Below are positions 3,543-27,138 of a stretch of 64,000 bases of DNA, piece by piece. Position numbers and translations under genes: made by a program. This DNA is from Escherichia coli (GTDB lineage: Bacteria > Pseudomonadota > Gammaproteobacteria > Enterobacterales > Enterobacteriaceae): the NCBI RefSeq assembly GCF_003334255.1, contig NZ_QOWU01000004.1, one strand, 5' to 3'. Within the stretch, counting starts at the first letter, position 1; every line of letters starts with the position of its first letter. The notes beneath the pieces are model-generated. The model made no database searches and was not told where the DNA came from. It saw only the letters and a list, made by a program, of their open reading frames with translations.

Positions 3543-5141
3543 ATGCGTAAAACAGTGGCTTTTGGCTTTGTCGGTACCGTACTGGATTATGCCGGGCGCG
3601 GCAGTCAGCGCTGGTCAAAATGGCGTCCGACACTCTGTTTATGCCAGCAAGAATCGTTGGTCATCGATCGACTGGAATTGTTGCACGACGCCCGCTCGCG
3701 CTCGCTATTTGAAACGCTTAAACGCGATATCGCCAGCGTTTCGCCAGAAACAGAAGTGGTGAGCGTTGAGATTGAACTGCATAACCCGTGGGATTTCGAA
3801 GAGGTCTACGCCTGCCTGCATGATTTCGCCCGTGGTTACGAGTTTCAGCCAGAAAAAGAAGACTATTTAATTCACATCACCACCGGTACCCACGTCGCGC
3901 AGATTTGCTGGTTTCTGCTGGCAGAAGCGCGTTACCTGCCCGCCCGGCTGATACAATCTTCACCTCCGCGCAAAAAAGAACAGCCGCGCGGCCCAGGTGA
4001 AGTAACGATTATCGATCTCGATTTAAGCCGTTATAACGCCATCGCCAGCCGCTTTGCCGAGGAACGCCAGCAAACGCTTGATTTTCTTAAGTCCGGCATT
4101 GCCACGCGTAACCCCCACTTCAACCGCATGATTGAGCAGATCGAAAAAGTGGCGATCAAATCCCGCGCGCCGATTCTGCTTAACGGTCCAACCGGCGCGG
4201 GCAAGTCATTTCTGGCGCGACGCATCTTCGAGTTAAAACAGGCGCGGCATCAGTTTAGCGGCGCGTTTGTGGAAGTGAACTGCGCCACCCTGCGCGGCGA
4301 TACCGCCATGTCGACGCTGTTTGGTCATGTAAAAGGCGCGTTTACCGGGGCGCGGGAATCTCGTGAAGGTTTATTACGCAGCGCCAACGGCGGAATGTTG
4401 TTTCTTGATGAGATTGGCGAACTGGGCGCAGACGAACAGGCAATGCTGCTGAAAGCCATTGAAGAGAAAACCTTTTACCCGTTTGGCAGCGATCGCCAGG
4501 TGAGCAGTGATTTTCAGCTTATCGCCGGAACGGTGCGCGATTTGCGCCAGCTGGTTGCCGAAGGCAAATTTCGCGAAGATCTGTACGCGCGGATCAATCT
4601 CTGGACCTTCACCCTGCCGGGTCTACGCCAGCGCCAGGAAGATATTGAACCGAACCTGGATTATGAAGTGGAGCGCCACGCCTCACTCACTGGCGACAGC
4701 GTGCGTTTTAACACCGAAGCGCGGCGCGCCTGGTTGGCTTTTGCGACCTCTCCCCAGGCAACATGGCGCGGTAACTTTCGCGAACTTTCTGCCAGCGTCA
4801 CGCGGATGGCCACCTTTGCCACTAGCGGACGCATCACTCTGGACGTGGTTGAAGATGAGATAAACCGTCTGCGCTATAACTGGCAGGAGAGCCGCCCCTC
4901 CGCGCTTACGGCGTTGCTGGGCGCAGAGGCAGAAAACATCGATCTCTTCGACCGTATGCAACTGGAACACGTTATCGCTATCTGCCGCCAGGCAAAGTCG
5001 CTTTCCGCAGCCGGACGCCAGCTTTTTGACGTTTCGCGCCAGGGCAAAGCCAGCGTCAATGACGCGGATCGGCTACGCAAATACCTGGCGCGTTTTGGTC
5101 TGACGTGGGAAGCCGTGCAGGATCAGCACAGCTCCAGTTGA
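3543..5141 (+). CDS. rtcR: sigma54-dependent transcriptional activator RtcR
   Basis: 532-aa ORF with AAA+ sigma54-interaction motifs ([22 protein letters not shown]). Confidence 0.95.
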
Positions 5142-5881
5142 ATATGGTGGTCCGTCAGCACCTGCATCACGCTTACTGGCGGCGGGGCGTCGGTGTAGAC
5201 GGCATCTACCATGCTGATGCTGCCCATATTGACCATCGCGTTACGGCCAAATTTCGAGTGATCGACAACCAGCATAACGTGGCGCGAGTTCTCAATAATG
5301 GCGCGTTTGGTGCGAACTTCGTGGTAATCGAACTCCAGCAGCGAGCCGTCGCTATCGATGCCGCTTATCCCCAGAATGCCGAAATCAAGGCGGAACTGGG
5401 AGATAAAATCGAGCGTCGCTTCGCCAATGATCCCGCCATCGCGGCTGCGTAATTCGCCACCGGCGAGAATGATGCGAAAATCTTCTTTTACCATCAACGT
5501 GTTAGCAACGTTGAGATTGTTGGTGACAATGCGCAAATTGCTGTGATTGAGCAGTGCGTGCGCTACCGCTTCCGGCGTGGTGCCGATATCGCTAAACAGC
5601 GTCGAGCCATTGGGGATTTGCTCCGCCACTTTGCGGGCGATGCGCTCTTTTTCTTCGGTCTGGGTGGCCTTGCGATCGTGCCACGGCGTGTTAACCGAAC
5701 TGGAAGGCAGCGCCGCACCGCCATGATGGCGCAGGATCAGGTTTTGCTCCGCCAGCTCATTGAGGTCGCGGCGAATAGTCTGCGGGCTGACGGAGAAATG
5801 CTCTACCAGCTCTTCGGTACTGACATAACCCTGCTGTTTAACCAGTTCGATAATACCGTTGTGACGTTGTGTTTGTTTCAT
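5123..5881 (-). CDS. glpR: DeoR-family glycerol-3-phosphate regulon repressor
   Basis: 252-aa ORF recognised as GlpR; its 3' end overlaps the rtcR 3' end by 19 bp. Confidence 0.95.
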   Translation of the reverse strand: MKQTQRHNGIIELVKQQGYVSTEELVEHFSVSPQTIRRDLNELAEQNLILRHHGGAALPSSSVNTPWHDRKATQTEEKERIARKVAEQIPNGSTLFSDIGTTPEAVAHALLNHSNLRIVTNNLNVANTLMVKEDFRIILAGGELRSRDGGIIGEATLDFISQFRLDFGILGISGIDSDGSLLEFDYHEVRTKRAIIENSRHVMLVVDHSKFGRNAMVNMGSISMVDAVYTDAPPPVSVMQVLTDHHIQLELC

Positions 5882-9409: not shown

Positions 9410-11875
<2,466 letters not shown>

Positions 11876-13309
11876 CTATTTCAAGCGATAGTAAAGCTCA
11901 CGGTACGACTTCGCCGCGACCTGCCAGCTAAAATCCATTGCCATAGCCTGACGTTGCACAAACCGCCACAGTGAAGGACGGGACCACAGTACAAAAGCAC
12001 GTCGAATAGCCCGTAACAGCGACCAGGCATTACTATCTTCAAAGACAAACCCACTGGCGACGCCATCTGCAAGGTTCTCAAGAGAACAGTCAGAAACCGT
12101 ATCAGCAAGCCCACCGGTGCGCCGCACTAACGGCAGCGTACCGTACTTCAATCCATAAAGTTGCGTTAAGCCGCACGGTTCAAAACGGCTGGGCACCAGA
12201 ATGACGTCCGCGCCGCCCATAATGCGATGCGAAAATGCTTCGTGATAGCCAATCTGAACGCCCACCTGACCGGGGTATTCCGCTGCCGCCGCAAGGAAAC
12301 CTTCCTGCAGCACCGGATCGCCCGCGCCGAGTAGCGCCAGCTGCCCGCCCTGCTCCAGAAGACCCGGTAAGGCTTCCAGCACCAGGTCGAGACCTTTCTG
12401 GCTGGTCAGACGGCTCACCACTGCAAAAAGCGGCACTTTATCGTCAACCTTAAGCCCCATTGCGATTTGTAACTGGCGCTTATTTTCCGCTTTATCTTCC
12501 AACGTATCGCGGGTGTAACGCGAGGCCAACAGTAAGTCCGTCTCTGGACTCCAGATTTTCTCGTCCACGCCGTTCAGTACGCCGGAAAGACGCCCTTCAC
12601 GGTGACGCTGTTGCAACAGACCTTCCATACCGTAGGCAAACTGCGGTTCGGTGATCTCGCGAGCGTAGGTTGGACTGACCGCCGTAATGTGATCGGCATA
12701 GTACAGACCGGCCTTCAGGAAAGAGATTTGTCCGTTGAATTCCAGCCCATGAATATTAAAGAATGACCATGGCAATTGGATGTCATTCATGTGATGTGCA
12801 TAAAACATGCCTTGATAGGCCAGGTTGTGCACAGTAAACACCGACTTCGCCGGACGCCCGCGCGCCGCCAGATACGCAGGCGCAAGGCCTGCATGCCAGT
12901 CGTGCGCATGCACCACATCAGGACGCCAGAATGGGTCAAGCCCGCTGGCCATTTCTGCCCCAACCCACCCCAGCAGCGCAAAACGCAATACGTTGTCGGT
13001 ATAGGCAAATAAGTTGGTATCGTGATACGGGCTTCCCGGACGATCATAGAGATGCGGCGCGTCAATCAGGTAAATGCCAACCCCGTTGTAATGACCGAAC
13101 AACAGCGTGATATGTCCGGCGAAGGTATCACGACGGGATACTACCTGCGCATCGGTCACGCCACGGCGAATATCGGGAAATGCAGGCAACAGTACGCGAG
13201 CGTCAACGCCGTCTGCGATTTGTGCTGCGGGTAATGCCCCAATAACATCAGCCAGACCGCCGGTTTTAAGCAGCGGGAACATCTCTGAACATACATGTAA
13301 AACCTGCAT
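11876..13309 (-). CDS. glgA: glycogen synthase
   Basis: 477-aa ORF ([22 protein letters not shown]...). Confidence 0.97.
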
Positions 13310-25043: not shown

Positions 25044-26081
25044 TTACTTAGCGAGAGTTACTGTGGAGGGAGAGGCTTGCTCAAATCCGCGTTCAAGGAT
25101 TTCCAGATTGGTAAGAACTTCAGATTCCTTGACGTAATTTGGCGCACCGTGGGTGATGGTTTGATACAACGCATCATAAACGCGCCCGTAATCGCCCATC
25201 TCCGGCTTCATCTCTTCTCTGACCGTCACGCCCTCGTCATTGACATACTCCAGCACACCGACCGAATCATCCGCTGCGAATCCCGGTTCGCCCGGCATAA
25301 TATTAGCCTTCAGGCTGGTTTCCTGCTGGTCGATACCGTATTTAATAAACGAACCTTTCTTACCGTGAACGATAAATTTCGGATAATCGATTTTCACCAG
25401 ATGGCTGGTTTTGACGATGGCTTTCAGGTCGCCATAAAACAGTTGCGCTTCAAAGGTGTCGTCAGGATTGGCTTTATTACGCAGGCTGCGGATGTCATAA
25501 GCGACGTGATCCGGGCGACCGAACAGAGAAATAATCTGGTCCATCGTATGCACACCAAGGCCATAAAACGCGCCATCCTGCGGCAGCCCAGGTTTGGTTT
25601 CTGCCACCGGGCGGTAATAGTCAAAATGGCTTTCCACTTCAACAATCTCTCCCAACTTGCCACTTTCAATCGCTTTTTTCGCTGTCAGGAAGCAGGAGTC
25701 AAAGCGACGATTCTGATACGGCGTGACGGTCAGCCCTTTGCTTTTCGCCAACGCAAACAGCTCTTTCGCCTGCGCAAGTGTCGGAGTGAACGGTTTTTCG
25801 ACCAGCACATTTTTCCCGGCTTCCAGCGCGCGTTTCGCGTACTCGAAATGGCTGTCCGCGTGGGTGCAGACAACAACCAGCTTAACATCGGGATCGTTTA
25901 GTACTTCGTCGAGATCGCTGGTGAAATGGATATGGGAATAAATGGGAGCCTGTTCTTCCGGCTTCGCATGGCGACGAAAAATATGCGCGACATGCCAGCT
26001 ATCCTTGCGGTTAAGTACATACGGCAGATGGTAACGGGTGGTGCTTTTGCCGAAGCCAATAAAGGCGCAGTTGATGACCAT
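25044..26081 (-). CDS. yhhX: Gfo/Idh/MocA-family NAD(P)-dependent oxidoreductase
   Basis: 345-aa ORF with an N-terminal Rossmann motif (CAFIGFGKS). Confidence 0.9.
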   Translation of the reverse strand: MVINCAFIGFGKSTTRYHLPYVLNRKDSWHVAHIFRRHAKPEEQAPIYSHIHFTSDLDEVLNDPDVKLVVVCTHADSHFEYAKRALEAGKNVLVEKPFTPTLAQAKELFALAKSKGLTVTPYQNRRFDSCFLTAKKAIESGKLGEIVEVESHFDYYRPVAETKPGLPQDGAFYGLGVHTMDQIISLFGRPDHVAYDIRSLRNKANPDDTFEAQLFYGDLKAIVKTSHLVKIDYPKFIVHGKKGSFIKYGIDQQETSLKANIMPGEPGFAADDSVGVLEYVNDEGVTVREEMKPEMGDYGRVYDALYQTITHGAPNYVKESEVLTNLEILERGFEQASPSTVTLAK

Positions 26082-26202
26082 GATTTCGTCCTTTTTAAGG
26101 TGGTTATTTACACCTTAGCGCAAAGCGGACGTGGTTCCTACTGGAGTGCGCATAACGAACACAAGCACTCCCGTGGATAAATTGAGAACGAAAGATCAAA
26201 AA

Positions 26203-26292
26203 AAAAGCCAGCACCCGGCTGGCTAAGTAATACTGGAAGCAATGTGAGCAATGTCGTGCTTTCAGGTTCTCCGCGAGGGTCTTCCTGATCGC
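26203..26292 (-). ncRNA. ryhB: RyhB iron-responsive small RNA
   Basis: Minus strand reads GCGATCAGGAAGACCCTCGCGGAGAACCTGAAAGCACGACATTGCTCACATTGCTTCCAGTATTACTTAGCCAGCCGGGTGCTGGCTTTTTTTT, the RyhB sequence with its terminator hairpin and U-tract. Confidence 0.92.
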
Positions 26293-26293
26293 G

Positions 26294-26320
26294 AGACAAT
26301 AATAATCATTCTCATTCGCA
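26294..26320 (-). promoter_or_regulatory. Fur box at the ryhB promoter
   Basis: AT-rich hexamer repeats (AATGAGAATGATTATTATTGTC on minus strand) resembling GATAATGATAATCATTATC, immediately upstream of the ryhB 5' end. Confidence 0.65.
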
Positions 26321-26413
26321 CTTGTCCAACACTTTTTGCAAAAAAATGCATTTGACTCGCATTTGAAAGTCAATGATGTTGAAAGGGACATTTACCCCAA
26401 AGAGGACAAAGGA

Positions 26414-26902
26414 ATGAGTGAGATAGTAATACGCCACGCAGAAACACGGGATTACGAGGCCATCAGGCAGATTCACGCCCAGCCGGAGGTGTATTGCAAC
26501 ACACTACAGGTGCCTCATCCTTCCGATCATATGTGGCAGGAGCGACTCGCCGATCGTCCCGGCATCAAGCAACTCGTCGCCTGTATTGATGGAGACGTCG
26601 TGGGCCATCTCACCATTGACGTGCAACAGCGCCCACGCCGCAGTCATGTTGCCGATTTTGGTATCTGTGTCGACTCTCGTTGGAAGAACCGCGGCGTCGC
26701 CAGCGCCCTGATGCGAGAGATGATTGAAATGTGCGACAACTGGTTGCGGGTAGATCGCATTGAACTAACCGTGTTTGTCGATAACGCCCCGGCAATTAAG
26801 GTCTATAAAAAATACGGCTTTGAAATTGAAGGGACTGGTAAGAAGTACGCATTGCGTAATGGTGAATATGTCGATGCATATTATATGGCGCGGGTGAAGT
26901 AA
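26414..26902 (+). CDS. yhhY: GNAT-family N-acetyltransferase
   Basis: ORF track 26336..26902; start trimmed to MSEIVIRHAETRDYEAIRQIH (162 aa). Confidence 0.88.
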   Translation: MSEIVIRHAETRDYEAIRQIHAQPEVYCNTLQVPHPSDHMWQERLADRPGIKQLVACIDGDVVGHLTIDVQQRPRRSHVADFGICVDSRWKNRGVASALMREMIEMCDNWLRVDRIELTVFVDNAPAIKVYKKYGFEIEGTGKKYALRNGEYVDAYYMARVK

Positions 26903-27138
26903 GATAGTGCCCTTTTTCTGAGATGGAAAAAGGGTGTCATTCAAAATCGACATACCTTCCTTTAAGGTATTTATTTGCCCAATACATATATTGAGATTTA
27001 ACTCATAATTACTTCCTAAAGTGTAATATTTTATTTTTTAATATATACGCCTACAATTTCCTGGAGTAAATAAATAACAATTAACAAGCATAATATTGCC
27101 ATTGATAAAATAGCATGCCATAAAAGGACTTTTCAGGG

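Follow-up and report, generated by a model that had tools for sequence, protein, structure and literature searches.

The 64-kb stretch of Escherichia coli DNA analyzed here, referred to as the window, carries the small RNA gene ryhB on its minus strand. The gene is flanked by yhhX (25044..26081, minus) and yhhY (26414..26902, plus), which is the same order as in K-12, and the 4 kb surrounding it, including both neighbors, was base-identical between the window and MG1655. The original prediction had placed a RyhB RNA with an exactly matching 5′ end in the interval 26190..26335. This interval does contain the RNA, the −10 and −35 elements, and a Fur box, and the identity covers the full annotated 95 nt, with 95 of 95 bases of the MG1655 ncRNA gene ryhB (b4451; NC_000913.3 3580922..3581016) agreeing with minus-strand positions 26292 (5′) to 26198 (3′) of the window. 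The minus-strand sequence of the region is GCGATCAGGAAGACCCTCGCGGAGAACCTGAAAGCACGACATTGCTCACATTGCTTCCAGTATTACTTAGCCAGCCGGGTGCTGGCTTTTTTTTT. The RNA starts with the G at 26292, and its annotated 95 nt take in the entire T run; mature RyhB is commonly given as around 90 nt, with a 3′ end inside the T run.

A covariance-model search, which had been named as a check of the original prediction, was carried out with Rfam 15 over the whole window. It returned RyhB (RF00057) on the minus strand (26263..26199), where model positions 1–67 of 67 were covered and the score of 83.1 bits exceeded the gathering score of 55, and this was the sole Rfam family that reached its gathering threshold in the 64 kb. 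Since the match had an E-value of 3.6e-14 and the identity to the curated gene was 100%, a RyhB match by chance is excluded. RyhB of E. coli K-12 (b4451; Rfam family RF00057) also bears the name SraI. All of the sequence-level defining features of the RyhB family that were examined are present at this locus. The gene found here is the well-studied RyhB proper, neither a relative nor a mere analogue. Among complete E. coli genomes, the 321-bp ryhB locus was found in 5425 of 5426, chromosomal every time, and it was at least 99% identical in 4825 complete genomes. The features of the locus are collected in Table 1.

Table 1. Features at the ryhB locus of the window, with coordinates in the window
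Feature	Coordinates	Strand	Relative position or extent	Basis or remark
ryhB small RNA gene	26198..26292	minus		95/95 identity to MG1655 b4451; Rfam RF00057
Sigma-70 promoter TGGACA-18-TATTAT	26299..26328	minus		Promoter scan, 10/12
Fur box (predicted operator) GAGAATGATTATTATTGTC	26295..26313		−21..−3	16/19 to consensus
Conserved core/target-pairing region GCACGACAUUGCUCACAUUGCUUCCAG	26233..26259	minus	RNA nt 34–60	27-mer
Rho-independent terminator	26198..26224	minus		Terminator scan and minimum-free-energy fold
12-bp palindrome TTTTTGCAAAAA	26333..26344		−52..−41 of ryhB start	Perfect, unique in window
Candidate mini-ORF RyhP (ATT start, MAHIASSIT, TAG stop)	26223..26252	minus	RNA nt 41–70	PMC5331693
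Chance 95-aa ORF (as read here)	26104..26391	minus	Overlies promoter, RNA, and terminator	Judged not to be a gene

The locus was compared across species by means of its conserved core. The exact 27-mer was searched in one genome per species, which gave at least 120 loci in Enterobacterales, Aeromonas, Vibrionaceae, and Zobellella. The genera listed as bearing the core include Citrobacter, Enterobacter, Klebsiella, Yersinia, Serratia, Pantoea, and Photorhabdus, as well as Aeromonas, Photobacterium, Aliivibrio, and Salinivibrio. Of these loci, 102 had enough flanking sequence for the analyses of flanking features described below.

Promoter, Fur box, and terminator

The RNA had been described as preceded by a Fur-box-like promoter, and this description was borne out. 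The −35 hexamer TGGACA lies at 26328..26323 and the −10 hexamer TATTAT at 26304..26299 on the minus strand, separated by an 18-nt spacer, and no other promoter-like site was found in 25900..26700. Read from the sequence, the 3′ edge of the −10 hexamer is at −7 relative to the annotated start. For the Fur box, all 19-mers of the window were scored against the 19-bp consensus GATAATGATAATCATTATC (PMC3423075). The 19-mer at 26313..26295, which matched the consensus at 16/19 positions when read on the plus strand (15/19 when read on the minus strand), was the best-scoring site in the 64 kb, and it overlaps the −10 hexamer. When the window was shuffled 30 times with its local composition, the best Fur score was 13 to 15 and never reached 16. 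A further, overlapping Fur-box register with 14/19 matches was present at 26319..26301. A Fur operator lying across the −10 element is the standard layout for Fur repression.

The operator recurs in other genera, as 99 of the 102 RyhB loci among the matches listed have a Fur box of at least 14/19 on the upstream side of their core. In two of the copies, L100 of Brenneria roseae and L064 of Pectobacterium zantedeschiae, the best Fur scores were 9/19 and 11/19, respectively, and no Fur box of at least 12/19 was found within 110 nt upstream of the RyhB core. These two copies may either have a longer 5′ domain or be paralogues outside Fur control.

The terminator hairpin of the original prediction was confirmed by the scan as a GC-rich stem of 7 bp (AGCCAGC/GCUGGCU, with five G-C pairs) and a 5-nt loop. 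The T run that follows it (26206..26198) had been given as a U8 tract, but nine T residues were counted in the window DNA; a tract of eight is found in E. albertii and in another E. coli of the comparison set. The hairpin sequence GCCAGCCGGGTGCTGGC has a single occurrence in the window (minus strand, 26223..26207), and the scan called the 7-pair stem at 26224..26206. We infer that the terminator forms an Hfq-binding 3′ module together with the AU-rich linker upstream of it.

Across species, a T run followed the core in 99 of the 102 RyhB loci among the matches listed, and in most of the loci listed the hairpin and T run were located 24–30 nt past the core, a near-constant offset. Compensatory changes were observed at three of the five terminator stem pairs in the 121 sequences among the matches listed, with A-U replaced by G-C 14 times and A-U replaced by C-G or G-C 12 times. 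The RNAalifold consensus of these 121 diverse sequences among the matches listed contained only the terminator and a 4-bp hairpin in the core. Between genera, the 5′ stem-loop varies too much, in its sequence as well as in its length, to be aligned, and no covariation is claimed for it. The single-sequence fold of this short RNA was not more stable than its shuffles (z = −0.67); this is commonly the case with short Hfq sRNAs and speaks neither for nor against RyhB.

Another terminator-like hairpin was noticed at 26175..26160 on the minus strand, between ryhB and yhhX. It was rejected as a terminator, having no real T run and a chance expectation of 0.9 per region, and it is probably non-functional. 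Since ryhB and yhhX are co-oriented and only 117 nt apart, read-through from ryhB into yhhX is conceivable.

Conserved core and the iron-sparing circuit

The E. coli gene is described as lying in the interval of yhhX and yhhY and as a direct target of repression by Fur-Fe(II) (PMC3423075). A transcript of around 90 nt that is induced by iron limitation or fur deletion has been published for K-12 ryhB, whose sequence is identical (cited in PMC3423075 and PMC4666370). The latter source presents the repression of many non-essential iron-protein genes by RyhB as an iron-sparing response, in which the RNA affects translation initiation, mRNA stability, or the two together, and it names shiA and cirA as activated targets (PMC4666370). 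Hfq is described there as binding the U-rich 3′ end of sRNAs and recruiting RNase E, whereby an sRNA and its target are degraded together (PMC4666370).

The pairing capacity of the core was examined with sodB, using the MG1655 sequence as a proxy for that of the window's strain. RyhB nt 38–46 (window 26255..26247) form a perfect Watson–Crick block of 9 bp with positions −4..+5 of the sodB mRNA, across the AUG. A block of this length was equalled by 40 of 2000 shuffled targets (2%), so that taken alone it is only moderately unlikely by chance. A duplex prediction between full-length RyhB and the sodB leader, in which intramolecular structure was ignored, yielded an unrealistic duplex of 86 nt, and the longest-perfect-block test was used instead.

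The mechanism proposed for the window's ryhB is as follows. With sufficient iron, Fe2+-Fur would occupy the operator at 26313..26295 over the −10 element and block the sigma-70 promoter. With scarce iron, Fur would leave the operator, and an RNA of around 90 nt would be transcribed from 26292 and ended at the hairpin and T run (26224..26198). Its single-stranded core (nt 34–60) would then pair with mRNAs that encode non-essential iron proteins, at their translation-initiation regions; sodB, sdhCDAB, acnB, bfr, and isc are examples of the expected targets. Pairing would block ribosome binding and trigger the RNase E-dependent decay of both RyhB and the mRNA, by which iron would be spared, while a few targets (shiA, cirA) would be activated rather than repressed. 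The dependence on iron and Fur, the binding of Hfq, and the decay coupled to RNase E are carried over from the literature on the identical sequence and are expected to apply here.

Other readings of the locus

The palindrome TTTTTGCAAAAA, at −52..−41 of the ryhB promoter, recurs unaltered and with constant spacing in 20 of 118 RyhB loci among the matches listed, all of them in Enterobacteriaceae. Its position and A/T tracts would fit an UP element. The palindrome might alternatively be the operator of a second regulator, or else the ryhB RNA might also be translated into the peptide RyhP; that one or the other holds seems unlikely to us, and the positive support in these data consists of the conservation of the palindrome within Enterobacteriaceae. 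If the palindrome were indeed the operator of a second regulator, ryhB would integrate another signal besides iron.

The peptide was proposed by Neuhaus et al. (2017), according to whom ryhB of the EHEC strain EDL933 encodes the nonapeptide RyhP from an ATT start codon behind a weak GGAGAA Shine-Dalgarno sequence (PMC5331693). On this reading ryhB has a dual function, acting by base pairing and also through RyhP, which would confer a growth advantage at low iron. In its favor, ribosome footprints were reported on ryhB, and plasmid-expressed RyhP had an effect over stop-codon controls in competitive growth (PMC5331693). The window carries the identical mini-ORF, which begins and ends within the RNA, spans the core and the linker, and is read in frame +1 if the frame of the 95-aa ORF is taken as 0. 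However, the ATT start is non-canonical and the RNA is without an ATG, the mini-ORF sits in the pairing core, which would be base-paired or Hfq-bound when the RNA is active, and the MG1655 record has no RyhP CDS. Moreover, the phenotype is known from overexpression alone (PMC5331693).

The comparison of loci likewise spoke against the peptide. Among the matches listed, MAHIASSIT was found exact in just 10 of 117 RyhB loci and the length of nine codons in 33 of 117, while over these 117 loci the frame ended at anything from 7 to >50 codons. This length varies because changes of 1 nt in the linker shift the TAG, which itself belongs to the conserved stem base of the terminator. The first seven residues of RyhP provide no independent evidence, since the RNA core used as the query dictates them. 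As far as these sequences tell, the RyhP stop codon is not conserved, and no conservation of the peptide was seen beyond the constraint on the RNA. We consider a dual function of ryhB very unlikely.

The 95-aa minus-strand ORF from which the original prediction started is present in the ORF list. It is an ATG-to-stop frame open for 95 codons, with the ATG 99 nt upstream of the transcription start. The RyhB RNA itself has no ATG, and the frame of the ORF (frame 0) passes straight through it, crosses the terminator, and reaches its stop codon 94 nt beyond. At the 102 loci listed, this frame was open for a median of 53.5 aa, versus 36.5 and 47.5 in the other sense frames, and at least 90 open codons were found in only 15 of the 102 loci among the matches listed. 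The boundaries of the ORF shift already in E. albertii and Citrobacter. In close relatives, the identity to the window was 0.80–1.00 from the −35 element to the end of the T run and about 0.4 from 26197 on. Conservation thus ends with the terminator, while the stop codon of the ORF lies another 94 nt on; this supports a spurious ORF.

Searches with the 95-aa product pointed in the same direction. There were no matches in NCBIfam and nothing significant in Pfam (best E = 1.5), and the exact product was not found among around 15 billion proteins predicted from public assemblies. As its DNA is present in thousands of E. coli genomes, the absence of the product from this collection indicates that gene callers skip the ORF. 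No CDS is annotated over ryhB in the curated K-12 MG1655 record, nor in one PGAP-annotated E. coli, and the composition of the product includes 8.4% Cys.

That the ORF is truly protein-coding and the likeness to RyhB secondary has next to no probability in our judgment: its 95 codons are open from an ATG that is preceded by a GGGG, though spaced only 3 nt, but this ATG lies 99 nt upstream of the start point of the sole promoter-like site, translation to the end would need read-through of a strong intrinsic terminator, the nucleotide conservation falls away within the ORF directly past that terminator, the frame is rarely long and its boundaries vary, and neither the annotation, the family and protein collections, nor the cysteine-rich composition speaks for a protein. 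Judged on these sequence comparisons, we regard the ORF as open by chance and without any role in coding. The statement of the original prediction that the locus is an RNA gene and not a protein therefore stands for the 95-aa ORF, which has no annotation, no homology, and no conserved frame; the RyhP proposal (PMC5331693) is the caveat to be attached to it. Taken as a whole, the locus is almost certainly ryhB, the Fur-repressed, Hfq-dependent sRNA of E. coli, overlain by a chance frame of 95 codons.

The case also has a bearing on annotation. The PGAP-annotated E. coli record had neither a CDS nor an ncRNA at the position of ryhB, which means that the gene is easily missed outside curated K-12. 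ORF tracks, in turn, show a frame of 95 codons on top of a functional RNA gene. A covariance-model scan combined with the anatomy of promoter, operator, and terminator and with a cross-species test of the frame resolves such cases fast.

Strain background and known relatives of RyhB

The window is colinear with MG1655 and identical to it around ryhB, yet it comes from another E. coli strain. The gene yrhA (28314..28808) is an uninterrupted ORF of 164 aa in the window, whereas the MG1655 copy is interrupted by IS1E at a site corresponding to about 28700; the 768-bp insertion and a 9-bp duplication account for an offset of 777 bp. Since the window carries an intact yrhA without IS1E, it belongs to a non-K-12 E. 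coli. Similarly, glpR (5123..5881, minus) is an intact ORF of 252 aa in the window and is annotated as a pseudogene in MG1655, the two sequences differing by a 1-base offset within this gene. Positions 26000–50000 of the window were 100% identical to the strains G1/2, G6/7, G8, and JP538. The livK-panZ-livJ stretch at 41000..45000 had no exact 250-bp match to MG1655, the divergence extending over about 41–45 kb, and the offset between the two sequences shifts by 11 bp there. This is a locally divergent and possibly recombined segment in an otherwise near-identical region.

A low-GC islet at 27000..29500, with 31–36% GC versus around 50% in its surroundings, adjoins yhhY and holds yhhZ and yrhA. 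The yhhZ gene is annotated as a putative endonuclease in K-12 and as an Hcp1-family type VI secretion effector (TssD) by PGAP. The islet looks like a horizontally acquired orphan module of the Hcp-toxin/immunity type.

Compared with RyhB of E. coli K-12, no difference was found at the locus, as the RNA, the promoter, the Fur box, the terminator, and the yhhX and yhhY neighbors are all the same. With the RyhB RNAs of other gammaproteobacteria, the window's gene shares the 27-nt core and the upstream Fur box, and most of them also have a terminator of the GCCAGC/GCUGGC type. In contrast, neither the sequence nor the length of the 5′ stem-loop and the linker is shared, and the RNA of Photobacterium, Aliivibrio, and Salinivibrio extends beyond the position of the E. 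coli terminator. The neighbors differ as well; in K. pneumoniae, for example, one flank carries an ORF with a bactofilin domain instead of yhhX.

Two unlinked RyhB copies with differing 5′ domains were observed in many genomes of Yersinia, Photorhabdus, Serratia, Pantoea, Pectobacterium, Hafnia, Erwinia, and Mixta (locus pairs L008/L009, L014/L015, L029/L030, L040/L041, L063/L064, L076/L077, and others). In Salinivibrio costicola and S. sharmensis, tandem RyhB cores lie around 307 nt apart, each with a Fur-box-like site (L084, 10920..11253; L088, about 11695..12030).

The tandem cores of Salinivibrio resemble the tandem PrrF1/PrrF2 of Pseudomonas. PrrF1/PrrF2 and FsrA of Bacillus subtilis are functional analogues that are not known to be homologous to RyhB in sequence and are classed in other Rfam families. 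FsrA acts together with small basic proteins and is not strictly Hfq-dependent. Like RyhB, PrrF1/PrrF2 and FsrA are Fur-repressed sRNAs that spare iron through the repression of mRNAs for iron proteins.
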